Below are positions 27,973-42,436 of a stretch of 52,826 nucleotides of DNA, in pieces. The position numbers were made by a program, and so were the translations under genes. Numbering within the stretch: the first letter of the stretch is position 1; each line of letters begins with the position of its first letter. The notes beneath the pieces are model-generated. The model was not told where the DNA came from and ran no database searches. It worked only from the letters and a program-made list of their open reading frames with translations. Location: NCBI GenBank assembly GCA_964450845.1, contig CAYVGZ010000003.1, positions 1 to 52,826 of the forward strand, written 5' to 3'. The DNA is from an uncultured Candidatus Bathyarchaeia archaeon (GTDB taxonomy: Archaea > Thermoproteota > Bathyarchaeia > Bathyarchaeales > Bathycorpusculaceae).

Positions 27973-29028
27973 GTGAAAAACAAAATGCAAAGCACAACGA
28001 CCAAATTCGCCAAAAACGACCTAGCAAAATATCCTTTTCTCAAAGAAACCACAGAATACGTGAAAAAACTCGATTTAAAAATTGAAGATATGGCAAATCC
28101 GGAATTCGCAAGCATTCTTGAACGCGCCAAAGAAAGAGTTGAAGAAGCAGTATTATACGCTTTAGTTAGCAGAAAATCGCACAACGAGGATATCGAGATT
28201 CCATCCTTCCCAGTGGCAATCATGTTAACCGTCGCAACTGAAAACTCGTTCATCAAAAAAAGATACGCCCTCGCCGAAGCAAAACAAACATTCGAAGACC
28301 TAAAACTCGAACCAAAAGAAAAACTCCAAGCAATCGCACAAAACTTCGCATGGAAACTCGAACCAATCGAAAACCCACAACCACCCTTCGAATTTACATT
28401 AAATTTCGTTAATTACCTGAGAAACACTGGCAATCTACACGAGAAAAAATGGAAACTCGTAAACCGCCTCCTATCAAACGGAAACGTATATCTGTCAAGA
28501 AATGAAACCGCAAGATTACTCAGCGAAGAAGTCCGCAAATACATTGAAAAAAGACAAGAAATAAAAGACACTCCTAAACTGCCACCAAAAATAATGGAAA
28601 TAGCCGAACAAATAAAAACACTCTCAAAAGAAAAAATTGGCGAAAAAGAGATGGAAGGATTTCCCAAAACCATAATCCAAGAAGCATTCCCACCATGTAT
28701 ACAAGCACTATACCAATCATTCACTTCCGGACACCACCTATCACACATAGGACGCTTCACACTAACCTCATTCCTCATAAACATTGGAATGCCAACAGAA
28801 ACCGTCATCGAACTGTTCAAAAACTTCTCCGACTTCAACGAAAGAATGACCCGCTACCAAGTTGAACACATCGCAGGAACGAAAGGATCAAGAACCCTGT
28901 ACACCCCCCCCAAATGCGACACATTGAAAACTCACGGTGTCTGTACAAACCCCGATGAGTTGTGTAAAAGGACGTACTATCCATTAAATTACTATCGAAG
29001 GAAAATCAGAAAAACTCAGACAGCTTAA
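27973..29028 (+). CDS. priL: DNA primase large subunit PriL
   Basis: FPPCI, RYQVEHIAG and PPKCDTLKTHGVC..LC Fe-S domain. Confidence 0.93.
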   Translation: MKNKMQSTTTKFAKNDLAKYPFLKETTEYVKKLDLKIEDMANPEFASILERAKERVEEAVLYALVSRKSHNEDIEIPSFPVAIMLTVATENSFIKKRYALAEAKQTFEDLKLEPKEKLQAIAQNFAWKLEPIENPQPPFEFTLNFVNYLRNTGNLHEKKWKLVNRLLSNGNVYLSRNETARLLSEEVRKYIEKRQEIKDTPKLPPKIMEIAEQIKTLSKEKIGEKEMEGFPKTIIQEAFPPCIQALYQSFTSGHHLSHIGRFTLTSFLINIGMPTETVIELFKNFSDFNERMTRYQVEHIAGTKGSRTLYTPPKCDTLKTHGVCTNPDELCKRTYYPLNYYRRKIRKTQTA

Positions 29029-29158
29029 ATTTTTGGTGAAAATGGGTTAAATAACAATAGAGTTTATATAGTAAGTTAAGGATAACTGAACACTACTTAA
29101 GGCGGTAAGCACTACGACAAACACTCACGCTCCTTGCATAACAGATCCAGATACTGAA

Positions 29159-29947
29159 GTGAAACTAGGGAATTTACGTCTAAGTTTTACAAACGATTTT
29201 TATGGTCTCGTAGAAGGAAACCTAAACATCACGTCTGAAGTCGGCGTGATTCTTCCAACCTATTGCGAAGCCGCAAACATCGAAAAACTAATCACCGAAA
29301 TTGAAAGCCTAAATCTCCGTTTATCCATTTTGGTTATAGACGATTCTAGCTCTGACGCTACAATTGATATTGTACGAAAGCTCCAGATGAAATTCCCAAA
29401 TATTCTTCTCTTGGTAAGGCCTCAAAAATTGGGACTTGGAACAGCAATAACAGATGGTTTCAAAATCTTTTTGTCCTTAAAAAAACCACCCGAATATATA
29501 ATTACGATGGATGCTGATTATTCCCATAACCCTAAAGACCTCCCACGTCTTATAACGCCCTTGAAAAACGGCTTCGACCTGATTATTGGAAGCAGATATT
29601 GCGAAGATGGCGGAACTTTAAATTGGGGTGTTGTGCGTCTGGCAATTAGCAAAGTAGCAAATTTTATGGCTTCCAGCCTTATAGGGGAAAAGATACATGA
29701 CTACACGAGTGGATTGCGTTGTTACTCGTCAAGGCTTGTTCGAAACATCATTACCGACTTGCACAGCGAAACCTACGAAATACAAATAGAAACAATTAGA
29801 CAAGCACATTTACGTAGACGCAAGATAGGGGAAGTTCCGATAACCTTTGCAAATAGGAAAAAAGGAAAATCCAAGCTTAGCTTCAACGAAATAACGCAAT
29901 TTCTTTCATACATATTCTTCAAGGCAATATTAGAATACCAACATTGA
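29159..29947 (+). CDS. Polyprenol/dolichol-phosphate glycosyltransferase (Dpm1-like GT2)
   Basis: LPTYCE, IDDSSSD, GLGTA, MDADYSHNP, IGSRY, DYTSGLR and EVPITFANRKKGKSK. Confidence 0.88.
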   Translation: MKLGNLRLSFTNDFYGLVEGNLNITSEVGVILPTYCEAANIEKLITEIESLNLRLSILVIDDSSSDATIDIVRKLQMKFPNILLLVRPQKLGLGTAITDGFKIFLSLKKPPEYIITMDADYSHNPKDLPRLITPLKNGFDLIIGSRYCEDGGTLNWGVVRLAISKVANFMASSLIGEKIHDYTSGLRCYSSRLVRNIITDLHSETYEIQIETIRQAHLRRRKIGEVPITFANRKKGKSKLSFNEITQFLSYIFFKAILEYQH

Positions 29948-30017
29948 GTTTGCAGAAAGCCACTGCAAAAAGCTTAGACAAATCTTGTGACAATAATTTC
30001 ACTAAAAATGTTTTCCG

Positions 30018-31121
30018 CTACGTGCAAACATTACTTAACAGATCAAACCATTCATTACCAATTTTGTCAACATCAAATCTCAAAGCACTAGGCCTGCAGG
30101 CTCGTCGGAAATTTTTTGGATATTTCTTCCTCCAGATTTTGGATGCAAGTTTTATGAGTTCAGCAGCATCATTTGCAAGCCATCCTGTCTCTCCATTAGC
30201 TATTGTTTCTTTTGGTCCCTGCTTGTTGAAAGTTAACACAGGCGTTCCACAAGCCAAGCTTTCGATGGGGATGTAGCCAAATGGCTCGTCTGTGAAAGGG
30301 TATAAAGTGAAGAGGGCATCAGAATAAAGCTCTATTAATTTTTCATTTTCTATTCTTCCTAAGAACTCAAGATTCTTGTGCACACGTATTCTCTTGGGAA
30401 TCATCGAGAGTTTGCCACCAAATGCCTTAATCTTTACACCTTTATCTAAAATCTGCTCTACCAGCTCAAAAATGGTTTCTTTGCCAAAATATGTTAGAAC
30501 AAAATCCTCTGATGGAGTGGTCGACGTTGGTCTGAATTGCTTGCAGTCCAGAGGCGGATAAATCACGTGCTCGGCTCGCACAGCGAATCTCCTGTAGACT
30601 GAAGCTAAGTATCTGGAGTTAGCCACAACGCAAGTAGAGCAATAGGCCATTTTCCTTGTGAAGCGCATGTCAAGCGTCTTAAGGATACGCGAAAGGAACT
30701 TGTAAACCACTTTATATTGCAATGGAAGGTTGCTTTTCATGTTGTCCAAAGTGACAGTTGGCGGTCCTTGCGCATACCAAACACTTGCTGGAAAAGCTAA
30801 AGTGTTAGAGAAATTCAATATGACACCGTCTAAGGTTGATACGCCCTTAGAGTTAATTGAGAATGAAGCTTCTCTAAGCCACTCTTCCATCCAAGCTATG
30901 GATTCATCCTTTTTCAAAATCGGCCCCTTCTCGAGGTTGACTGTTTGAATTCCCATTGAACCCAGTTTTCTTTGTAGTTCTGGTGAAATGATAGTAGAAA
31001 CCATTGTTACCCTCTTGCCGCTTTCTATAAACTTGTTTGCAAGGAGAATTGCTGGTCGGAGAGGACCGTATTCGCTTAGTAATGGGTCACAAATGATTGT
31101 AATGTCTTGGTCGTCCAGCAT
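30018..31121 (-). CDS. GT4 family glycosyltransferase
   Basis: VANSRY, IYPPLD and EPFGYIPIESLACGTPV (EX7E) motif. Confidence 0.9.
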   Translation of the reverse strand: MLDDQDITIICDPLLSEYGPLRPAILLANKFIESGKRVTMVSTIISPELQRKLGSMGIQTVNLEKGPILKKDESIAWMEEWLREASFSINSKGVSTLDGVILNFSNTLAFPASVWYAQGPPTVTLDNMKSNLPLQYKVVYKFLSRILKTLDMRFTRKMAYCSTCVVANSRYLASVYRRFAVRAEHVIYPPLDCKQFRPTSTTPSEDFVLTYFGKETIFELVEQILDKGVKIKAFGGKLSMIPKRIRVHKNLEFLGRIENEKLIELYSDALFTLYPFTDEPFGYIPIESLACGTPVLTFNKQGPKETIANGETGWLANDAAELIKLASKIWRKKYPKNFRRACRPSALRFDVDKIGNEWFDLLSNVCT

Positions 31122-31194
31122 TATGGTTCATCTCTACTCAATTCTCAGGTAAGCTTTTAATTCTTTCTTATTTCTATAACTACGGAGGATCAAC

Positions 31195-32784
31195 ATGGGG
31201 ATGAGTGTAATAAGCAAATTGAGGCGGCATCCATTCCTTTTCTTATGTGTGAGTATTCTGGTGTACATAGCAGTCTTTTCATACGTGAGTGTTTTGAAGC
31301 ATCGTGCTTTCGAGTCTTCAGCTTGGGATTTAGGGATTTACGAACAGGTAATTTGGTCGACCACAAATACGGGAAGAATCTTCTGGTATACTGCTGAGAT
31401 CTTGATAGTCCCCTCATGTAATTTTTTCGGGGTACATTTCTCCCCAATTCTCTTTCTAGTTGTTCCCATATATGCATTCTATCAATCAACTGAGACGCTG
31501 CTGATCCTGCAGTCTTTAGTTCTGGCCCTGGCGGCGATTCCTCTCTACAGACTTGTCCTTCTTGAGAGCGAGAGTGCTAAACAAGCCCTAGCGTTTAGCT
31601 TAATCTACCTTGCATATCCCCCAATCTCTAGTATGAACATAAACGATTTTCATGTTCAAGCGTTTTTGCCCCTTTTCTTCTTCTTTGCATTTTACTATTT
31701 TAGAAAAGGGGAATGGGTCAAATACTTCTTGTTTGTTGTTCTTGCATTGATGGTAATAGAAATTGTTCCGTTGATAGTCGTCTTCTTCGGCCTTTATGGT
31801 CTATGGATAAATAGGAAAAAACTCTCACACATATCTGATGCTTTTTATCTCAAGCGGCTTTCAGCCAGCAAGAGTATGATCTGTTCGATTGTCACTATAG
31901 CTCTAGGCGTTGCTTGGTTCGTGCTTGCAAAAACAGTAATTTCTGCCGTAAACCCTGCTGCCCAGCCGAATCTGAATTGGGCGAGTTTTGGTGATCCAGT
32001 CCATGATCTTCCAGGCCTTTTGTTCAATGTATTAACCAACCCCATCAAAACCATAAATACTATTGTCACCCCGGTGGAACCAAAAGCGATATTTCTCTTT
32101 GGTTTGTTCGCACCGTTGGCTTTTCTATCGTTTCTGTCTCCACCATCACTCCTCATTGGTGCTCCATGGTTTATAATTGCCTTCTTATCCAATTATTCGA
32201 CATATTACTATGCGCTTGCTCATCAATACGTAGCCTTTGTTGCACCGTTCATATTTATATCTGCAATTTATGGTTTTAAACGTCTAGGGGTTATCACGAA
32301 TTATCTTGTTTCCAGTGGACGATTCCAAAGTGTTTTCAGCAAGATCACCAAATTTCAGTACGGGAAAGCAATGCTGATAATATGCCTCTTCTTTGTCATT
32401 GCGTCCTCATACATTGTAATCTTAGACATTCACGCAAGTCTTCCTGTTGTCACAAAACATGATGAGGCTCTGGAAGTTTTCGTCAGCCTCATTCCTTCAA
32501 ACGCTTCTGTTTTAACTCAGAATGACCTTCTCCCACACGTAAGCAGAAGACTGTATGTTTATGCTCCTTCCTGCAACTCGACAGGGAATCTTCCTGCTGA
32601 TATTACATTCGAATACATCTTTGTGGATGTCACATCAGGGTGGTATACGTCTTCTCTTGACAACTTGGTCAGTAATGTGATATTGGAAGGTTCCTTCGGA
32701 ATTCAATATGCTTCTGACGGTATTTTGCTCCTTAAGAAAGGTTATATAGGTGAGACTATTGACCCAACCGGAAAGGGCTATTAG
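31195..32784 (+). CDS. DUF2079-like multi-pass membrane protein (predicted GT-C-type glycosyltransferase)
   Basis: AWDLGIYEQ, FFGVHFSPI, DFHVQAF and HQY motifs; ~10-12 hydrophobic segments; C-terminal soluble domain. Confidence 0.75.
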   Translation: MGMSVISKLRRHPFLFLCVSILVYIAVFSYVSVLKHRAFESSAWDLGIYEQVIWSTTNTGRIFWYTAEILIVPSCNFFGVHFSPILFLVVPIYAFYQSTETLLILQSLVLALAAIPLYRLVLLESESAKQALAFSLIYLAYPPISSMNINDFHVQAFLPLFFFFAFYYFRKGEWVKYFLFVVLALMVIEIVPLIVVFFGLYGLWINRKKLSHISDAFYLKRLSASKSMICSIVTIALGVAWFVLAKTVISAVNPAAQPNLNWASFGDPVHDLPGLLFNVLTNPIKTINTIVTPVEPKAIFLFGLFAPLAFLSFLSPPSLLIGAPWFIIAFLSNYSTYYYALAHQYVAFVAPFIFISAIYGFKRLGVITNYLVSSGRFQSVFSKITKFQYGKAMLIICLFFVIASSYIVILDIHASLPVVTKHDEALEVFVSLIPSNASVLTQNDLLPHVSRRLYVYAPSCNSTGNLPADITFEYIFVDVTSGWYTSSLDNLVSNVILEGSFGIQYASDGILLLKKGYIGETIDPTGKGY

Positions 32785-32865
32785 CTTACATCGTCGAACA
32801 ATAATAATGCGACCTAGCATTGAGAAGGAGTGTGACTATAAAAAAACTATTGAGGTAATTGTAGA

Positions 32866-33750
32866 TTGAATTTAAAAGTTTCCTTGGTAATACCCACCTA
32901 CAAACGCCAAGCGGACCTGCATGAATGTCTGCGTTCAGTTTTTGATCTACACTTTCCCCCTGATGAAGTGATAGTTGTAGATAGCAACTCAATGGACGGA
33001 ACAGAGGAACTTAAGAATTCTTTCCCCATAAAATTTTTTTCGATTAAGGAAAGATCGCGCGAGCGCGCGCTAAACCTCGGCATCTCCTCCGCGAGCGGTG
33101 AAATAGTGGCCTTTTTGGATGATGATGTTGTTGTCTGCAAGGAATGGCTAGATGAGATTGTGGAACCATACGCAAATGGTAATGTTGGTGGAGTTGGTGG
33201 ACGAGTAATTCCGTATGGTAGATCAAAGGGCTTTCATGTGCCAATAGGGAGAAGTGATGTAGGCAAAGTATTCCCCAATGGACTTGTCATAGGAAACTTT
33301 GACCTCCCCTTACAGCGCCAGATTAAGGTTGATTCTTTCATTGGCTGTAATATGTCTTTTAGAAGAGAATTGTTGTCGAAAATCGGTGGATTTGATGAAA
33401 ACTATACTGAATATTGTTATAGAGACGAGACGGATCTTTGCATTCGTATCCGCAGACTTGGATACATGCTAATATATAATCCGAAAGCAATAGTTTGGCA
33501 TAAGTACAAAGGCAAGGACTTTAATCAATGGTCATATTGGTACGTTCGAAACAATGTCTATTTCTACTTCAAAAATCTTTTTGCTCAGAATAGACTCGGT
33601 TTTCCCATGTTTCTATATTCCATGTTCATGCCTCCCAGAGAATACGTCTTGAAATCTGGCATAAAGATTAAGGTTGAACCCACACTACTGTTAAACATAA
33701 TAAAAGGATTTTATGATGGCTATGAAACTTGGAAGTCATATGCAAATTGA
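32866..33750 (+). CDS. GT2 family glycosyltransferase
   Basis: VIPTYKR, VVDSNS, AFLDDD, GCNMSFRR, GGFDE and ETDLC. Confidence 0.92.
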   Translation: MNLKVSLVIPTYKRQADLHECLRSVFDLHFPPDEVIVVDSNSMDGTEELKNSFPIKFFSIKERSRERALNLGISSASGEIVAFLDDDVVVCKEWLDEIVEPYANGNVGGVGGRVIPYGRSKGFHVPIGRSDVGKVFPNGLVIGNFDLPLQRQIKVDSFIGCNMSFRRELLSKIGGFDENYTEYCYRDETDLCIRIRRLGYMLIYNPKAIVWHKYKGKDFNQWSYWYVRNNVYFYFKNLFAQNRLGFPMFLYSMFMPPREYVLKSGIKIKVEPTLLLNIIKGFYDGYETWKSYAN

Positions 33751-34158
33751 ATAATCAAATGTCTATGCATCGCCTAAATGTCTAAGAATGTGAACGCCAA
33801 TGAATTTACGGCAATTTTTCGGAGGCTTTCTACTGAATATTCTCGCGAACCTGATGGTGTGTCTGCCTAATCGTGCATAGAAAGAAGATAGTTCTGATTC
33901 AGATTCTAAAGAAGAGAACATGTGACACGCACACAAGTGGTTGCGTTTTGGTCCACAAATGAACTGGCTATCCTGTTGAAAAACAGCTTCGACTAGCGTA
34001 CATCTGCGTTCCCAATCGCTGAATTGTACACACTAACCTCAGGACGTAACTCTTGAACGGGTACAATCCGGCAACCTCAATCATTACTTATTCGAGAAAT
34101 TAACAGAAAACATTCAAGGGACTGTCGCGTTTAACTTTCTCACAGTCAAGATCCGAAC

Positions 34159-35136
34159 TTACGATCCGACGATTCCCTCATTTTTTGTAATGTGTCGATG
34201 CGACTCGCACTCTAATGTCCATCTGATCGTGCGTCTAATCGCTTCTTCTGAGGATATCTTCTGTCTCCAGCCTAGTTTCTTTATTTTGTCTAACGAAAGT
34301 TCGACAACAGGAATGTCTCCGACCCAGCCTCTTGGACCACCAGCGTAATTCCTCTTCACGTTTTTCAAGCCCATTTCTTCAATTACCATGTCAGCAATTT
34401 TGTCCACTGATGTTTGCTCTTCAGCACTTAGGTTGAAGATGTTGACCTTCGATGAGGCTTTTTTGTATCCAATCATCATTCCGTTAACGCAATCTTCGAC
34501 ATGTAGATATTCCTTGTTTTGCTTGCCGTCTCCCAGAATCTCTAGTTCTGATGGATTCTCAAGTAATTTATGTACTAAATCCCAAATGACGCCGTTTCTC
34601 CGTCTCTCTCCGACAACATTTCCGAGCCTGAACGCCCAGAATTTGATTAGAGTGAATTGTGTAAAAGCCTCAGCGTAGGCTTCGCAAGCCAGTTTTGAGG
34701 CGCCGTACAGAGATGTCTGGGAGGAGAAAAAGTCTTCAGGCGTCGGCTTAACCGTTGCTTCACCGTACACTGCTGACGTAGAGGCGAACACCAAGTCTTG
34801 AATCCCATTTCTACACATAGCCTCTAAGACGTTAAGCGTTCCGATCAGATTATTATCCAAATCAACTCTGTGATCGGCGAAGCTTTCTCTAATGTTTGCG
34901 TGGGCAGCTATATGAAATGCAACATCATGCCCAGCGAAGATGCGGTTAAGCTTGTCCCCGTCTCTGATGTCAGCTTTTTTAACAGTGAGACAAGAGTTAT
35001 TGGAATGTTGTTTGAGGTTCTCCAAATAACCACGCGACATGTTATCAACAACAGTTACAACGTATCCTTCTCCAAGTAATAGGTCAACTAGGTAGCTTCC
35101 GATAAAGCCCGCCCCACCTGTTACTACTGCCCTCAC
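34159..35136 (-). CDS. NAD-dependent nucleotide-sugar epimerase/dehydratase (extended SDR)
   Basis: TGGAGFIG, ASTSAVYG and YGASK catalytic motif. Confidence 0.92.
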   Translation of the reverse strand: MRAVVTGGAGFIGSYLVDLLLGEGYVVTVVDNMSRGYLENLKQHSNNSCLTVKKADIRDGDKLNRIFAGHDVAFHIAAHANIRESFADHRVDLDNNLIGTLNVLEAMCRNGIQDLVFASTSAVYGEATVKPTPEDFFSSQTSLYGASKLACEAYAEAFTQFTLIKFWAFRLGNVVGERRRNGVIWDLVHKLLENPSELEILGDGKQNKEYLHVEDCVNGMMIGYKKASSKVNIFNLSAEEQTSVDKIADMVIEEMGLKNVKRNYAGGPRGWVGDIPVVELSLDKIKKLGWRQKISSEEAIRRTIRWTLECESHRHITKNEGIVGS

Positions 35137-35225
35137 ACGTTGTCAGCCTCTTTCTAAGCTACATGTTTTTCTTTCATTCGTCCTATGGCTCTTTTGGTCT
35201 TCTTAACTCTTTAGGGAAAGGTGTC

Positions 35226-35984
35226 TCACTTTGCTGATTGATGTGTGCGAAAGAATTCGTTGGTAGTCCTGTACGAGTCTATTGTTCCTATGTCCCATAA
35301 ATATTCTTTGAGCATGAAGCCAAACACGGGCTCCTGTTTATAGAGCCATTCGATAAATCTTCCAGGCTCATCAGTCGCTAGTTCCAATTGTAAGTATTCA
35401 CCAAGTCTTCTGTTTATTCCCGCAGGAAAAGCGTAGAGACAGGCACCTACGAGGGTTGTTTTTGGGTGTAGAGGCTTTTCTTTGAATTCAAGTATTCTTC
35501 CATCTTTATCCACCTTGACCATGGAACCCTTTCTTGTTTCGGCCAGACTCCTAGCATGGTATAAGGCTACAGTTGGTGCGTACTTTTCACAGAAGAAATG
35601 GATGAAACTTCCAAGCTTGTCAGTGAATAGATTGTCGCCAGCGAGAACCAAAACATCCTCCAGGGCTGCCTTATCGACTATATTGGCCAAGGCTCTGACG
35701 GCCCCAAGCTTTTCCTGTTCAGAGGAAGACTTCTCAGGAATGAGTTCAATGTTACAGTGTTTGCTAGTTTTCAGCCACTTTTGAAACTGCAATTGAAATC
35801 TCTGGTTTGTCGACAATATAATTCTATGCATGGGGGGCTCCAGTGAAATAAGCTTCTCAACAACATAGTCAATTATGGGCCTCCCAGCTATAGGTAGCAG
35901 GGCCTTAGGCCTATCTATTGTCAGTGGCCAGAGTCTCTTGGCATACCCACCTGCAAGAACGACAGCAATCATCTGAGACTTCAC
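35226..35984 (-). CDS. Sugar-1-phosphate nucleotidyltransferase (putative HddC-like heptose-1-P guanylyltransferase)
   Basis: LAGGYAKRL..PKALLP, GDN, EKP and WDIGT; GTGA overlap with transaldolase. The HddC role is inferred from context. Confidence 0.85.
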   Translation of the reverse strand: MKSQMIAVVLAGGYAKRLWPLTIDRPKALLPIAGRPIIDYVVEKLISLEPPMHRIILSTNQRFQLQFQKWLKTSKHCNIELIPEKSSSEQEKLGAVRALANIVDKAALEDVLVLAGDNLFTDKLGSFIHFFCEKYAPTVALYHARSLAETRKGSMVKVDKDGRILEFKEKPLHPKTTLVGACLYAFPAGINRRLGEYLQLELATDEPGRFIEWLYKQEPVFGFMLKEYLWDIGTIDSYRTTNEFFRTHQSAK

Positions 35985-36664
35985 TTTTGAGATTCAGCTT
36001 TCTTGAACTCTATCCAAGCCTCATCGAATTCTCTGATCGTGTCCTCTGTTTTCTGGTGAAAAGCCATTTGCATTAAAATCTTGTAAGGTATTGTTATAAT
36101 GTGGGCTCCCGCAGCAGCTGCCTCGTTGATGTCTTCAGGTTTTCTGATGCTGCCTACGATGATCCGCGTGGAAAGGCGGTCTTCTTCTATTATACGCTTT
36201 GACTCTTGTATAACCTTTACTGGGTTGAGGCCTGAATCTCGTACGCGGTTAAAGAATATGCTGGCATATGTGGCTCCGACTTTGGCTGCCAATATGACTT
36301 GATTCGTGGTTATCAGGCAAGTCATATTTGTCTTAATTTTCTCCTTTTTTAGCATAGAGACAACTCGAAGCCCGCGGCCATCGCCAAACATCGGAACTTT
36401 AATGACGATGTTCTTTGGGTTCCAACTTGAGTACTCCTTCGCTTCTTTGACTAACTCGTCGTCGCCTTCGCGAGTTCTGGTAAGCTCAACGCTTATTGGT
36501 CCGTCTACGAGAGATAGGATTTTGTGGACTGTGTCTTTGAAGTCGACGCCTTTTTCAGCCAAAAAGATTTTCTGGTTTGTTGTGACGCCGCTGATGATGC
36601 CCCAAGGCAGTATATCCTTTATTTCTTTCACACTTGCCGTATCAAGGAATATTTCCACTATCAT
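35981..36664 (-). CDS. tal: Short (class MipB/TalC-like) transaldolase
   Basis: FLDTA, GVTTNQ, SVE, Schiff-base Lys in VIKVP, SIFFNR and GSIR. Confidence 0.85.
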   Translation of the reverse strand: MIVEIFLDTASVKEIKDILPWGIISGVTTNQKIFLAEKGVDFKDTVHKILSLVDGPISVELTRTREGDDELVKEAKEYSSWNPKNIVIKVPMFGDGRGLRVVSMLKKEKIKTNMTCLITTNQVILAAKVGATYASIFFNRVRDSGLNPVKVIQESKRIIEEDRLSTRIIVGSIRKPEDINEAAAAGAHIITIPYKILMQMAFHQKTEDTIREFDEAWIEFKKAESQK

Positions 36665-36680
36665 TCACCTCTTAGTGACT

Positions 36681-37319
36681 CTAGACGTTCGAAACGTTTT
36701 TGACATTTATCAAATCTGGTTTGACGCGGCCATTGATTTCCTTTTCGATGATTCTCGATGCGCTATACAGGTCAGCAACGATGTGGTTGGGTTTAGCACC
36801 CTCAACTTCCATGAGTCTGCAAAGATCACATTTCAGAGTGCCAATAAGGAAGGTTTGGCAGCCAACAGCCCTGCCTGCCTTAACATCTACAAGGCTGTCA
36901 CCAACCACAAAGCAGTTTTTCAGGTCCAACGCGAAATCTTTTCCAGCCCTCAAAAAAAGACCCGGCATAGGTTTCCTACAATCACAGCTAGCTCTATATT
37001 TGGCGACTTTTGCCGATGGATGATGAAAACAGTAATACTCTCCGTCTAGGTGGGCGCCCCTCTTCTCCAGTTCCCTTTTCATTTTTAGTCTTATTTCTTC
37101 AAAGGCATCGATTGTCATTTTTCCCTTTGCAATAGCAGGCTGATTCGACACAACTATTACCTTGAGATTCAAATGGTTAAAGACCATTATTGCCTCTGCC
37201 ACTCTGGGTAGTAGCTTGAATTGGTCAACGTTCAGAGGCGAGTCCAGCAACCCCAACTCCGGAAAGTAGGCAATCTCGTTTATGACCCCGTCCCTATCGA
37301 GAAAGACTGCTCTGTTCAT
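36681..37319 (-). CDS. gmhB: D,D-heptose-1,7-bisphosphate phosphatase (HAD IIIA)
   Basis: FLDRDGVIN, SNQ, CFHHP..CDCRKPMPG and GDS..D; start re-called at ATG 37319. Confidence 0.87.
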   Translation of the reverse strand: MNRAVFLDRDGVINEIAYFPELGLLDSPLNVDQFKLLPRVAEAIMVFNHLNLKVIVVSNQPAIAKGKMTIDAFEEIRLKMKRELEKRGAHLDGEYYCFHHPSAKVAKYRASCDCRKPMPGLFLRAGKDFALDLKNCFVVGDSLVDVKAGRAVGCQTFLIGTLKCDLCRLMEVEGAKPNHIVADLYSASRIIEKEINGRVKPDLINVKNVSNV

Positions 37320-37462
37320 TTGCTGTCTCCTAGTTCTGCAACTTCGCAAACATCTACAATATTGTACTTGAGTCCTTCTGAACTCAGAAATCTCTTGATA
37401 TTCTCAATAGTTTGACCAACTTTTCTGTTTTTGGTGTCCACCCATATGATGATGCGTTTCAT
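37316..37462 (-). CDS. Unannotated 48-aa protein inside the heptose operon
   Basis: MKRIIIWVDTKNRKVGQTIENIKRFLSSEGLKYNIVDVCEVAELGDSK. ATG lies 1 nt after the gmhA stop; its TGA overlaps the gmhB ATG (ATGA). Confidence 0.65.
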   Translation of the reverse strand: MKRIIIWVDTKNRKVGQTIENIKRFLSSEGLKYNIVDVCEVAELGDSK

Positions 37463-37463
37463 T

Positions 37464-38063
37464 TCATGACTCCTCTATCAACTCGCGCAGTCTAGCGCAT
37501 ATGAGATGTGATAACACGGAGTGGAAGCCTTCTACCTGTGGTGTGGAGTCAACGGGCACCACTATGCAAGCATCGGCTATCTGTTTGAGGGCTCCTCCGT
37601 CGAAACCAGTCAAACCAATAACCTTGCCGCCATTTTCTTTCACAAACTTGGCCGCCTTCATAAGGTTCTGAGACCACAGACCAGCCGCGTCCGCTCCGGA
37701 GCCTCCATGAACACTTATAACCACGAAAACATCTCCTTCTTGCATTAGATTTTTGAGTTGTTCTACGTAAACATTTTCCCAGCCTAAATCATTTGTGAGC
37801 GCCGAAACCAAGGGCCAATTATCCACCAGAGAAATGGCTCTGAATCTTTTCTTGCCTTCAATAGACGTGAACTTTGCTAAGTCGCAGGCAAAATGGGTTG
37901 CCGTTGGGGCAGAGCCTCCGTTTCCTGCAAGAAAAACTTGTCTTCTTTTCTTCCAAGCCTTGTATAGAAGTTCTATTACGTTGTCGATGTCTTCTATGGA
38001 TGTACATCTAGTTATTGATTCCAATTCTTGGAGGTATTCGTTTATGAAGTCTTTGTTTTTCAT
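37464..38063 (-). CDS. gmhA: Phosphoheptose isomerase (SIS domain)
   Basis: AGNGGSA..ATHFACDL, ALTND..ENVYVEQL and PQVEGFH motifs. Confidence 0.88.
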   Translation of the reverse strand: MKNKDFINEYLQELESITRCTSIEDIDNVIELLYKAWKKRRQVFLAGNGGSAPTATHFACDLAKFTSIEGKKRFRAISLVDNWPLVSALTNDLGWENVYVEQLKNLMQEGDVFVVISVHGGSGADAAGLWSQNLMKAAKFVKENGGKVIGLTGFDGGALKQIADACIVVPVDSTPQVEGFHSVLSHLICARLRELIEES

Positions 38064-38071
38064 GAGATCAC

Positions 38072-39055
38072 TTAAATGTTGATGATTATCTTTGAACCTG
38101 ACGGTTCAAAGCTGAACCTGACTTCTGTCAAGCCTTCCTTGGACATGGTTTTTCTCAACTTATCCTTGTCATTCTCGCAATAGAACATAAGGAAGCCTCC
38201 ACCGCCAGCACCTACTAGCTTGCCGCCTAAGGCTCCGTTCTTCAATGCTTTTTGATAGTACCTATCTACTGGATCGCTTGAAATCTTTGAAGATGTACCC
38301 TTCTTTGCTAGCCAGTGCTCGTGCTGAAGTCTGCCAAACTGGGACAGGTTTCCGTTTTCAAGAGCATGCTTGACTTTGAAGCCTATCTCCTTGATGCGAT
38401 GCATTGAATCCAAAGCGTTCGAGCTGTCATCAAGGATCGATTTCCTCTGATCTTGAAGCACCATGACAGAACTCCTTTTAAGGCCTGTATAGAAGAAAAT
38501 CAGGTTATTACTAAGCTCATGAACAGTGTCATCTGCAATCTTCAACGGTGAAATCTTAACTTTTCCATCTTGGGCTATGTCTAAGCATATAAAACCTCCG
38601 AAAGCAGCTACGTAAGGATCTTGGACACCGCTCGGTTCTTTCAGTATGCCCATCTCTAAGAAACAAGCTTCTTCAGCAAGTTTTTGCCGTGAAGGATTTT
38701 CATCTTTAAATGCGTGAAGAGCGTGTAGGAGGCTGACGGTGAAGCTTCCAGAGGAACCTAAACCTGTCTCAGCAGGCAAATCAGCTATCGAAACTATCTC
38801 GATATGCTTCTCCAGTCCAAGAAGCCTCAATCCTTCTCTCACAACGGGATGTCTAATATCATCTATGGATTTCACAATTTCAGTTGATAAATAGCTTACC
38901 CTGATTTCTTCTTCAAATCTGCGGTTGACTATCAAATAGACGTACTTGTCCAAGGCGGCAGTAACGACAAATCCTCCATACATGGAGTAATATGGAGGCA
39001 AATCTGTCCCACCACCACCTAGAGTCAAACGAAGAGGAGTTTTGGTGATGATCAA
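38072..39055 (-). CDS. hddA: GHMP kinase, D-glycero-D-manno-heptose-7-phosphate kinase type
   Basis: TPLRLTLGGGGTD, GLGSSG, GVQDPY and GGKLVGAGGGGF. Confidence 0.85.
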   Translation of the reverse strand: MIITKTPLRLTLGGGGTDLPPYYSMYGGFVVTAALDKYVYLIVNRRFEEEIRVSYLSTEIVKSIDDIRHPVVREGLRLLGLEKHIEIVSIADLPAETGLGSSGSFTVSLLHALHAFKDENPSRQKLAEEACFLEMGILKEPSGVQDPYVAAFGGFICLDIAQDGKVKISPLKIADDTVHELSNNLIFFYTGLKRSSVMVLQDQRKSILDDSSNALDSMHRIKEIGFKVKHALENGNLSQFGRLQHEHWLAKKGTSSKISSDPVDRYYQKALKNGALGGKLVGAGGGGFLMFYCENDKDKLRKTMSKEGLTEVRFSFEPSGSKIIINI

Positions 39056-39537
39056 CTATGTTCATCTTTGTGATGTCAATTTCATTTCGTAACGTATTAA
39101 TTAAACATGCGTTGTTACGTCGTATATATGGATTACCATTGTAGCTATCTCGTTTCTTTTCAAGAACTCACCTTGTGAGCAAACCAAACTGCTATATGGT
39201 GACTGCATTCAAGCTTAGGTTAGTCAAATCCCTAACAAGCCTGGTTAAGCTGAATGTTTTTCGAGCATCAATGCTCTTCTCACTAATCGTGCCAAAGTGC
39301 AAACTTCGGAAGTGCTTCCAGAGTGGTTTTGCTATGTATTTTAGTGAATACCTGTTTAATGCGTATCATTTTATACCGCTATATTCCTCTTTCGTCCCTT
39401 AACTCAATGTTTCCTCTATTACAAAAAGAGGTTAATGCAATGCTCAAGAGGGCTCAATAGATCCCTAATTGCTTTGCTCTTTGCTTGCAACCGCTGAAGA
39501 GAAAGTTTAAAGCTAAATGGTGCTTTCTTAAAACTAG

Positions 39538-40779
39538 GTGGATGTGGACTCAGTTAATTTTATCCAGAGAAGGTTTCGCGATTACTACACCAGAAATTAT
39601 GTTCCAAAAAGTTCTATTTCAAAGATGGAACAACGTGAATTTGGCTTCGCAATGTTTGAGGGCTGGATGCAACGGCATAAGAGCATTAAGCAAATTGTTG
39701 AGCTAAAAGAGTTTTTGCAGAGTTCTGCCCCTTCAGACACATATTACTCCTCTGCCTATTATGAGTCTCCTGAAGCTGAGATGGATCGAAAAGGATGGAT
39801 TGGCGCCGATCTCATCTTCGACATCGATGCTGACCATATTCCAACGTCATGTGATAAAATTCATGATGAATGGGTTTGCGGCAGTTGTGGTTTTTCTGGC
39901 AAGGGAGTTACGCCTGAAAAATGCCCCGTATGCGATAGTGAAAAGTTTAATGTGAACACATGGCCTTGTGAAAAATGTTTGGCTTCTGCAAGAGCAGAAA
40001 CGCTGAAACTTTTGGACATGCTAACACAAGATTTCGGCTTTTCCGAAAACGAAATACACGTTTTCTATTCTGGACACCGTGGTTACCATGTCTCTGTTGA
40101 ACATGAAACTGTTAAGACGCTTGATTCCGTTGCACGCAAGGAGATCGTAGATTACCTTTCTAGCTTAGGTTTAGACGTTTCTCCATATAGCCTGAAGAGA
40201 AAAAATAGGAAAGAGCCACTTCTTTTTTTGGATGCGCTCGAAAACGATCTTGGCTGGTTTAAACGTCTAAATCAGGGAATACAAAATTTCATCGTTAATG
40301 CCAAAGATGAGGATTTCAGAAATATTGAACTTAAAAAGAATGTCATTAATGCTTTATTGCGCAACAGAGATTCCATTTCTAAAAGCTTACAGAACACTGG
40401 AAAACGGATTCCTTTTGTTAAAGGATTAGGCCCAGATTCTTTGGGGAAAATAGCCAAACATGTGGTTAAGTTGCAATCAGCCAAAGTAGACACTGTTGTG
40501 ACTACAGATATTCATCGTTTAATTAGGTTGGCTGATACCTTGCATGGCAAAACTGGCTTTTTAAAGGTCGAGTTTCCAGTTTCAACTATACATGATTTCG
40601 ATCCATTCAAGGACGCGATAGCCTTTAAAGAAGGCACTGCAACCGTTAATGTTTCTGGTGCACCCGAGTTCAGGTTGGGTGATGAAATGTTTGGTCCTTA
40701 CAGAAATCAAGAGGTTGAATTACCTACAGCTGCGGCTGTGCTACTTATTTGTAGGAATAGAGCACAGGTTGTGAATTAA
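39538..40779 (+). CDS. priS: DNA primase small (catalytic) subunit PriS
   Basis: QREFGF, DLIFDIDADH, SGHRGYH, DTVVTTDIHRLIR and LHGKTG. Confidence 0.95.
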   Translation: MDVDSVNFIQRRFRDYYTRNYVPKSSISKMEQREFGFAMFEGWMQRHKSIKQIVELKEFLQSSAPSDTYYSSAYYESPEAEMDRKGWIGADLIFDIDADHIPTSCDKIHDEWVCGSCGFSGKGVTPEKCPVCDSEKFNVNTWPCEKCLASARAETLKLLDMLTQDFGFSENEIHVFYSGHRGYHVSVEHETVKTLDSVARKEIVDYLSSLGLDVSPYSLKRKNRKEPLLFLDALENDLGWFKRLNQGIQNFIVNAKDEDFRNIELKKNVINALLRNRDSISKSLQNTGKRIPFVKGLGPDSLGKIAKHVVKLQSAKVDTVVTTDIHRLIRLADTLHGKTGFLKVEFPVSTIHDFDPFKDAIAFKEGTATVNVSGAPEFRLGDEMFGPYRNQEVELPTAAAVLLICRNRAQVVN

Positions 40780-41344: not shown

Positions 41345-42436
41345 TTAAGAAGGCTTGTCTTGATTTGGTAAGTCTTGGTTTTCTGCTGCGATTGGTTTTT
41401 TGCTTCCAATTTTCGTCCATAGTGCTCTGCTTCCGATTATTATAAGAGGATAAGATACTATCCATGTAACTGAATATAGTTGACCGTAATAATTGTGAAA
41501 CAGCATCCAATCACCATCATTGACTGCAATAATAAAAATAGTTACAATTCTGAGTATATTGATAAAATAGGTTATTATGGCGCCTATTATAAAATAGCTT
41601 ATTTTCTGTTTCCAAGAGGGCACGGTTATTCGCAAGAACAGCAAAATTACGAGGGTGTAAATTATTAAGCTCTCAACTCCAGAGCATGGCCAAGCAATGG
41701 ACGCAACCCAACTGCTCCCACTTTGGTTGATTACGTACAATGTGGGCATACTTCCGCCCAAAATTAGCATTGTCCTGTATCCCATTAAGTTCAAAATTTT
41801 TTCTGCAAGCATTGCTGTGGTCGGAACAAAAATCTGAAAAGGAGTGAAGCTTCCATATCTGTAAGCATTGTCGATTGTATATATTGCCCCCATTGCAGCT
41901 AGGAAAACTGGTGCAATCACAAGTTTTTTTAAGCCGCTGCTGTCGTATTCCAACCAGATTATCAAGATAAAAAGTACTGAGAGAACTAGATACTCAACAT
42001 CAAGAGGTATCCAGTCGCTTTGGTCGACTCCACTTTGATACGCCCAATCCACAATTGCCTTTGATGGGAACGCATAGTAGTTGGAGGCAACAATGTATAT
42101 TGTAGGAAGTAGAAGTACTAGAATGAATGCAACAGTTCTCGCAGAACATAATTTGCTAACTTTTGGTTGAAGTTTCTCCCAGAACAGAATCAACTCTAAT
42201 GTGGCTATCCACAGAAAGAAAAGGTAGAACGTTCTGCCTTTCCATGTCATTTCAAAACTAAAATATAAGCCTGTAGTGTTATGAAAGAAATACAGTATCA
42301 TAAATGGTATAATAAACGCAAGAATCGGGAGAATTTTGATTAAATCGTTTTTTCTGTTATTTAGACATCGTACAACGTTTTGCATTAGCAAACGTATTCT
42401 AATTATGAGATATCGTGCAATGTTTTGCATTACCAA
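41345..42436 (-). CDS. Archaeosortase/exosortase family membrane transpeptidase (start uncertain)
   Basis: Multi-TM; candidate catalytic triad Cys (WPCSG), Arg (NILRI) and His (FHNYYG). Confidence 0.82.
   Translation of the reverse strand: MVMQNIARYLIIRIRLLMQNVVRCLNNRKNDLIKILPILAFIIPFMILYFFHNTTGLYFSFEMTWKGRTFYLFFLWIATLELILFWEKLQPKVSKLCSARTVAFILVLLLPTIYIVASNYYAFPSKAIVDWAYQSGVDQSDWIPLDVEYLVLSVLFILIIWLEYDSSGLKKLVIAPVFLAAMGAIYTIDNAYRYGSFTPFQIFVPTTAMLAEKILNLMGYRTMLILGGSMPTLYVINQSGSSWVASIAWPCSGVESLIIYTLVILLFLRITVPSWKQKISYFIIGAIITYFINILRIVTIFIIAVNDGDWMLFHNYYGQLYSVTWIVSYPLIIIGSRALWTKIGSKKPIAAENQDLPNQDKPS

Follow-up and report, generated by a model that had tools for sequence, protein, structure and literature searches.

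A transaldolase-containing gene cassette of Bathyarchaeia predicted to make a nucleotide-activated seven- or eight-carbon sugar

The DNA analysed here (the window) comprises 52,826 nucleotides from an uncultured Candidatus Bathyarchaeia archaeon, and our subject is a compact gene run at positions 34159-39055. The open reading frame (ORF) listing places seven co-directional ORFs on the minus strand in the order kinase, SIS-domain isomerase, 48-residue protein, HAD phosphatase, transaldolase, nucleotidyltransferase and epimerase, and the spacings from the kinase to the epimerase are 8 nt, 1 nt, an overlap, 16 nt, a 4-nt overlap and 89 nt. Gene families were assigned by Pfam and NCBIfam profile searches and structural matches by a search of the PDB; G and L numbers denote the genomes and loci compared, the host assembly (1.64 Mb, 93.5% complete) being G000. 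Two genomes flagged as unpublished (G370 and G559) figure in a single tally, and none of the claims depends on them. Coordinates, spacings and families agree with a first-pass annotation of the window, which had described a tightly coupled seven-gene run and read it as a GDP-D,D-heptose operon with its own supply of sedoheptulose 7-phosphate (S7P). From these comparisons we consider it highly probable that the run (the cassette) encodes a transaldolase-primed route to a nucleotide-activated sugar of seven (C7) or eight (C8) carbons. The gist of the earlier reading, an operon-like nucleotide-sugar module for a higher-carbon sugar in an archaeon, was thus right, whereas its labels GDP, GmhA, S7P self-supply and D,D-heptose are doubtful.

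The transaldolase gene (35981..36664, minus strand) encodes a short, non-canonical enzyme of 227 residues with a putative role like that of LmbR in lincosamide biosynthesis. The protein matches TAL_FSA at 140 bits and the transaldolase model TIGR00875 at 179 bits (cut-off 246), and it keeps the catalytic Asp, Glu, Lys, Thr, Phe and Arg, which align to D6, E60, K86, T110, F132 and R135 of TacTal (3s0c). The Schiff-base lysine is accompanied by Glu and Phe in transaldolases and by Gln and Tyr in fructose-6-phosphate aldolase (FSA), and retention of the Glu and Phe rules out an FSA identity. The type 3B short transaldolases TacTal, B. subtilis 3r8r and T. maritima 1vpx are likewise about 220 residues long and have all catalytic residues including the Phe, but the cassette copy differs from them in reading TTNQKI, in a two-residue insert, in having SIFFNRVRD for SPFVGRLDD beside the phosphate-binding Arg and in belonging to a separate clade. 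As a group, the cassette transaldolases carry TTNQK(I) against the canonical TTNP(S/T)L, the two-residue insert (GDGRGL), and Y(A/V)S(I/L)FF(N/R/C)R..D (YASIFFNRVRD in the window copy) against the canonical YVSPF(V/I)GRLDD. Their TAL_FSA scores lie at 130-140 bits, compared with 195-224 bits for the housekeeping short transaldolases of other Bathyarchaeia.

In a 25-sequence maximum-likelihood tree, which included housekeeping copies from both phyla, left out the long-type L041 and gave G469 a long branch, a 100/100 branch splits ten cassette transaldolases (nine archaeal, one from Chloroflexota) from fifteen housekeeping copies. The window copy is the sole TAL_FSA gene in G000, and within the host family TAL_FSA occurs in two of 49 genomes (G000 counted), exactly the two cassette carriers. 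An exhaustive HMMER search returned 4,673 transaldolase relatives, and many of the best 150 cluster representatives are without the canonical Pro-Phe-x-Gly-Arg motif. Furthermore, fusions were found among the non-canonical transaldolases, namely to a GHMP kinase (P0124, 562 residues), to a HAD phosphatase (P0253, 410 residues) and to both HAD and SIS domains (P0297, 620 residues). Because its occurrence in the host family matches that of the carriers, the gene stays within the cassette from archaeal lineages to Chloroflexota, it forms a separate clade, it has motifs of its own and its relatives are fused to kinase, phosphatase and isomerase, we predict that the transaldolase is a core pathway enzyme of the cassette. 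Ten high-GC relatives looked up by name proved to be Dehalococcoidia or unnamed transaldolases and not Lmb proteins.

Equally distinctive is the SIS protein (37464..38063, minus strand; 199 residues; SIS_2, 50 bits), a candidate variant ketose-phosphate isomerase resembling GmhA and LmbN. Its best model is GmhA (TIGR00441), at 95 bits against a cut-off of 209, and other GmhA models give 63-86 bits of 265-320. In B. pseudomallei GmhA the zinc ligands H64, E68, Q175 and H183 are reported to show complete conservation in orthologues, and mutation of any of them to reduce activity (PMC5705639). Alignment to the B. pseudomallei and C. jejuni enzymes showed that the cassette protein keeps both histidine ligands and has Asp for Glu68 and Glu for Gln175. 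The same alignment revealed Thr for Asp61 and a nine-residue insert in the STSGxS loop, which binds the substrate phosphate. These Asp, Glu and Thr changes and the loop insert are common to all cassette SIS copies, including that of the Chloroflexota genome G469, whereas the GmhA proteins of a different Bathyarchaeia genus (f35/g93) carry the canonical zinc-ligand residues without the cassette substitutions or insert. With two of four reportedly invariant ligands replaced and the loop extended, the earlier name GmhA finds no support, and we take the protein, as judged from its residues, not to be a canonical GmhA. A protein-atlas search with it returned only generic 'SIS domain' clusters. In the Bathyarchaeia genome G104 (L009 and L015, G104:C32:91174-99201), two hddA-like loci lie side by side, one a canonical GmhA-HddA-GmhB set, the other an HddA and a SIS protein with the Asp and Glu substitutions and without the loop insert, followed by a GT2 gene; this second locus looks like an intermediate form.

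The first gene of the run (38072..39055, minus strand; 327 residues, TTG start) encodes a protein with GHMP_kinases_N and GHMP_kinases_C domains, a predicted sugar-phosphate 1-kinase resembling HddA, WcbL and LmbP. Its best NCBIfam model is HddA (NF049969) at 174 bits, short of the cut-off of 600, with fucokinase second at 98 bits and galactokinase below 50, and its best PDB matches are 3k85, 4usk (WcbL) and 4n3o (C. jejuni HddA), with E values of 1e-44 to 2e-39. Homology to HddA and WcbL is clear from the structure matches, and the proposal that the kinase is of the GHMP, alpha-anomer type and not of the HldE type stood up to the profile check. The kinase is 46-49% identical to Chloroflexota cassette kinases, as against 31-37% to the canonical HddA of Bathyarchaeia of its own class. 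A different possibility is that the genes do not form one pathway, the transaldolase serving housekeeping while the kinase and nucleotidyltransferase salvage a hexose such as fucose, galactose or mannose in an incidental neighbourhood. NCBI names kinase homologues 'galactokinase', fucokinase is the second-best kinase model and the epimerase looks like an ordinary GalE, yet we judge this explanation highly improbable given the lead of the HddA model, a gene order conserved across phyla, the fusions of transaldolase to kinase, to phosphatase and to phosphatase plus isomerase, and a transaldolase confined in the host family to cassette carriers. Hexose salvage in particular is rejected by the kinase model scores together with the fusions. 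In G129 the cassette kinase gene (L017:9887-12073, G129:C5) is a 729-residue open frame whose GHMP C-terminal domain is interrupted at about residue 280 by an intein with a LAGLIDADG homing endonuclease (Hint, Intein_splicing, LAGLIDADG_3); inteins are unusual in sugar kinases.

Between the isomerase and phosphatase genes lies an ORF of 48 residues (37316..37462, minus strand) without a Pfam or NCBIfam match. Homologues occupy the same position in L016, L026, L027 and L028 (33-67% identity, with MKRI..W.D, LK..L and CE motifs in common), and this conservation as a protein in four loci marks it as a real gene of the module; a counterpart looked for in L030 was not found. The following gene (36681..37349, minus strand; 222 residues, with an alternative ATG start at 37319) encodes a putative HAD-IIIA sugar-bisphosphate phosphatase resembling GmhB and LmbK. 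It has the catalytic motif DRDG and passes the HAD-SF-IIIA model TIGR01662 (92 bits, cut-off 44.6) and TIGR01656, the histidinol-phosphatase-like subfamily (114.5 bits, cut-off 84). Against the GmhB equivalogs it scores 139 bits of 178 (PRK08942) and 112 of 150, and 75 of 250 with the alpha-type model.

For the sugar-1-phosphate nucleotidyltransferase (35226..35984, minus strand; 252 residues; NTP_transferase, 120 bits), all NCBIfam scores are far under their cut-offs, mannose-1-phosphate guanylyltransferase reaching 89.5 bits of 440 and HddC (NF049965) 52 of 300, with ten other nucleotidyltransferase models outscoring HddC. PDB matches are similarly weak (RmlA, 1e-11; GMPPB, 2e-8; GlgC, 5e-8), which puts the protein at much the same distance from RmlA, GMPP and GlgC, and its loop GGYAKRLWPLT is unusual and kept in the Bathyarchaeia cassettes. 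The claim that the pathway is of GDP type thus finds no support here, and the nucleotide used is not assignable from sequence. The last gene (34159..35136, minus strand; 325 residues), 89 nt downstream, encodes a GalE-like NAD-dependent short-chain dehydrogenase/reductase (SDR) epimerase (Epimerase, 165 bits) with a putative LmbM-like role, whose best PDB match is A. fulgidus GalE-1 (3ehe, E value 2e-81). It has the motifs GGAGFIG, STSAVYG and YGASK. Identity as a nucleoside diphosphate (NDP)-sugar 4,6-dehydratase of the DmhA/RmlB type was rejected, as the TDE motif is missing and STSAVYG and YGASK are of GalE type. An orthologue of 62-72% identity follows the cassette in five of the six other loci covering that position.

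In order to see the cassette in its phylogenetic setting, we turned to related genomes. The module of HddA, SIS, 48-residue protein, GmhB, transaldolase, nucleotidyltransferase and SDR recurs in the same order in L016 (G187), L026 (the Bathyarchaeota record OY970176, kinase 87% identical), L028 (DATHCB01) and L027 (DASPTR010000160.1, binned as 'Candidatus Acidoferrum', Acidobacteriota; 85% identical, with a different final SDR). Two metagenome-assembled genomes (MAGs) labelled 'Thermococci' and Hadarchaeota have the transaldolase upstream of the kinase (L030, L031), and the cassette genes of G129 (L017) are rearranged. Since the gene set recurs in order at seven further loci, the arrangement is not a matter of chance. 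The search of the 40 nearest genomes gave no close homologue of the kinase. Among 301 genomes sampled of the class, 11 have a kinase homologue, three of the close type (G000, G187, G129) and eight at 31-37% identity, all eight belonging to the genus f35/g93. Ancestry of the cassette within the lineage was rejected, as the search of the 40 nearest genomes did not find it and the close form turned up in only three of the 301, and as judged from its distribution the cassette is horizontally mobile. Five genes of the L027 cassette share 77-85% protein identity with the host and its nucleotidyltransferase 60%, and its genome (G329, 1.7 Mb) yielded neither transketolase nor a further transaldolase; this cassette reflects either mis-binning or a recent transfer. 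The 'Thermococci'-labelled MAG (G326, 3.2 Mb) has two cassette-type transaldolase copies on different contigs (L069, L068) and the Hadarchaeota MAG measures 4.0 Mb, sizes that suggest mixed bins.

To rationalise the gene set on the level of a pathway, we propose that the transaldolase would move the three-carbon dihydroxyacetone unit of fructose 6-phosphate onto an aldose phosphate. The acceptor would most likely be ribose 5-phosphate, giving octulose 8-phosphate and finally an NDP-octose. The variant SIS enzyme would convert the ketose phosphate to an aldose phosphate, the GHMP kinase would phosphorylate O-1 in the alpha configuration, the HAD-IIIA phosphatase would take off the terminal phosphate, the nucleotidyltransferase would make the NDP-sugar, the GalE-like SDR would epimerise it, and the product would serve the neighbouring glycosyltransferases. 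All of these catalytic steps are predictions from homology and gene context, as are the anomeric configuration (alpha), the choice of acceptor and with it the chain length, the nucleotide and the connection to the glycosyltransferases.

Two known pathways invite comparison. The lincosamide GDP-octose pathway of Streptomyces lincolnensis and S. caelestis (LmbR/CcbR) has the same six enzyme types that the cassette holds in one run, among them a dedicated transaldolase preceding a GmhA-like isomerase. LmbR forms D-glycero-D-altro-octulose 8-phosphate from ribose 5-phosphate and either fructose 6-phosphate or S7P (PMC5854111), and in the lincomycin and celesticetin sugar pathway this C8 transaldolase is joined by the C8 isomerase LmbN, kinase LmbP, phosphatase LmbK, guanylyltransferase LmbO and epimerase LmbM (PMC4351081, PMC12945683). 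The Lmb genes serve antibiotic biosynthesis in a secondary-metabolite cluster, whereas the cassette has glycosyltransferase genes as neighbours and belongs to a surface-glycan island of an archaeon; LmbN has an extra carrier-protein domain, and the cassette is without the tailoring enzymes LmbL, LmbZ and LmbS and has the additional 48-residue gene. With the GDP-heptose pathway (HddA, GmhA, GmhB, HddC) the cassette likewise shares a GHMP-type kinase of the alpha-anomer route, a SIS protein, a HAD-IIIA phosphatase and an NTP_transferase, but classical GDP-heptose clusters have no transaldolase, and the canonical GDP-heptose pathway in other Bathyarchaeia is only 30-37% identical to the cassette. 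In the literature searched, no paper naming HddA, GmhA and a transaldolase together was found, and the cassette appears to be uncharacterised so far. As the gene set equals that of the LmbR/N/P/K/O/M pathway, a C8 product is at least as likely as a heptose.

The choice of acceptor depends on what the host can supply. G000 encodes a Fae-HPS fusion, PHI (177 bits, passing the cut-off of 160) and RpiA (216 bits), so ribose 5-phosphate, the acceptor of the Lmb pathway, should be available here too, and these genes indicate that pentose is made by the ribulose monophosphate route. The Fae-HPS fusion (L021:346-1911, G000:C17) has 521 residues, of which about 128 precede the Fae domain without a family match. 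Neither transketolase nor Rpe was found in G000, the sole matches being an E1 dehydrogenase alpha subunit (E1_dh, 321 bits) and the HPS domain of the Fae-HPS fusion, respectively, and these weak matches were accordingly dismissed as true enzymes. Phosphoketolase, 3-deoxy-D-arabino-heptulosonate 7-phosphate (DAHP) synthase I and dehydroquinate synthase II (DHQS-II) were likewise not found in G000, nor chorismate synthase in any of the three genomes of the genus (G000, G001, G002), which may depend on external aromatic amino acids. With no transketolase, Rpe, phosphoketolase or shikimate genes found, G000 has no detected source or use of erythrose 4-phosphate, and since a transaldolase cannot make S7P without erythrose 4-phosphate, the idea that the operon supplies its own S7P has a gap. 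Seven of the nine closest carriers yielded no transketolase; besides G000, it was not found in G187 (99% complete), G325 (one 2.35-Mb record titled 'chromosome'), G326, G327, G329 and G331.

Carriers and clusters from other genomes bear on the same question. The Chloroflexota genome G469 has a run of GFO/IDH/MocA, HddA, variant SIS, GmhB, cassette transaldolase and NTP_transferase on a contig of 64% GC, and it also has transketolase and a canonical long transaldolase (272 bits). Three further Chloroflexota genomes encode transketolase and a more distant cassette-linked transaldolase, together with a canonical transaldolase in G567 and G328 and, in G409, with a second transaldolase. A dedicated transaldolase kept where S7P should already be available is expected to make something that the housekeeping enzyme does not. 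Lincosamide producers are presumed to have a complete pentose phosphate pathway, which makes them a parallel to the Chloroflexota carriers with their retained dedicated transaldolase. At the f35/g93 loci of Bathyarchaeia the GmhB-HddA-GmhA genes are canonical, no transaldolase lies within about 1.5 kb on either side of them, and in those genomes transketolase adjoins the housekeeping transaldolase.

These observations allow us to weigh the reading of the first-pass annotation, a GDP-D,D-heptose operon whose transaldolase supplies S7P. The kinase, isomerase and phosphatase find their best-scoring named models and solved structures in HddA/WcbL, GmhA and GmhB, no other transaldolase, transketolase or Rpe was found in the host, and the transaldolase-type catalytic residues are compatible with S7P formation. 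We nonetheless regard a heptose as the less likely product, because erythrose 4-phosphate has neither a detected source nor a consumer in G000, all four heptose equivalog cut-offs (GmhA, HddA, GmhB, HddC) are missed by the cassette proteins in NCBIfam, the SIS protein has kept only two of the four zinc ligands described as unvarying in GmhA, the cassette copy persists in bacteria that also encode transketolase and another transaldolase, and canonical heptose clusters of the same class have no transaldolase nearby. A C8 product is favoured over C7 by the available ribose 5-phosphate, the lack of a detected erythrose 4-phosphate source, the departure of the SIS protein from GmhA, the dedicated transaldolase kept beside transketolase, the canonical heptose clusters of the same class and the LmbR precedent. 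By analogy with the Lmb pathway, the case that the product is an eight-carbon sugar nucleotide built on ribose 5-phosphate is about evenly poised. The same cassette logic might instead use another acceptor, arabinose 5-phosphate or a hexose 6-phosphate giving a different octose or a nonose, or yield an unusual C2 epimer of heptose through the altered isomerase. The transaldolase pocket motifs and the metal-ligand set of the isomerase differ from every characterised enzyme, and chain length and stereochemistry are not fixed by sequence analysis; as nothing speaks positively for any particular alternative, and among acceptors ribose 5-phosphate alone has a characterised precedent with such an enzyme set, we consider these variants improbable.

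Several points weigh against an octose. Among characterised homologues, those closest to the kinase, the isomerase and the phosphatase are heptose enzymes, and the likeness to the Lmb pathway is one of enzyme types rather than of demonstrated orthology. The inferred absence of transketolase rests on draft and MAG assemblies, though it is repeated in several carriers, and G129 carries the cassette together with a true transketolase, its cassette transaldolase being its only one. The redundancy argument carries over only in part from G409, G567 and G328, whose cassette transaldolases are only 34-41% identical. Moreover, we know of no octose in an archaeal glycan. We put forward only tentatively, at somewhat less than even confidence, that the cassette is a primary-metabolism NDP-octose pathway, by which archaea (Bathyarchaeia, Hadarchaeota and others) and bacteria such as Chloroflexota would place an octose, made by a specialised transaldolase from fructose 6-phosphate and ribose 5-phosphate, in their surface glycans; the lincomycin octose route would in that case look like a relative of a widespread envelope pathway.

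Next to the cassette, at 29159..33750, lie genes for a glycosyltransferase of family GT2, a GT1 glycosyltransferase, a DUF2079 membrane protein and a second GT2 enzyme (Pfam), the probable users of the cassette product as inferred from their position. These genes and the cassette make up a 10.5-kb island lying between priL and priS. Proteins encoded on the flanks of the run include PriL, PriS, GINS51, aIF2-alpha and an exosortase-like protein (Pfam), and the closest homologues are labelled Bathyarchaeia or Bathyarchaeota; these labels and the first four of the flanking genes mark the host as archaeal. Among genomes of the same family, priL and priS are directly adjacent in G006, have the first GT2 gene alone between them in G011 and G004, and in others are surrounded by different glycosylation genes. 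Since the content of the interval differs in this way, the priL-priS site (27973-40779 in the window) represents a variable glycosylation hot-spot and the cassette an insertion into it. G010 has a DUF2079 gene upstream of priS, and its priS is separated from the GINS gene by a GT2 gene. Just past priS and the GINS gene, the window encodes an exosortase/archaeosortase-like membrane protein (41345-42436, minus strand; Exosortase_EpsH, 35 bits), which may process surface proteins bearing the glycan; a homologue adjoins the GINS gene in several relatives.

Automated annotation labels such genes as GDP-heptose enzymes (JGI) or as galactokinase and transaldolase (NCBI), and thereby hides a distinct and widespread cassette. 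Should the product prove to be an octose, it would be the first C8 sugar nucleotide to serve ordinary surface glycans, the non-canonical short transaldolases would gain a definite function, and envelope biosynthesis would seem to include relatives of the lincosamide sugar pathway. For the abundant but uncultured Bathyarchaeia, the cassette leads us to expect a surface sugar that varies from strain to strain and whose genes lie in a hot-spot between two primase genes.

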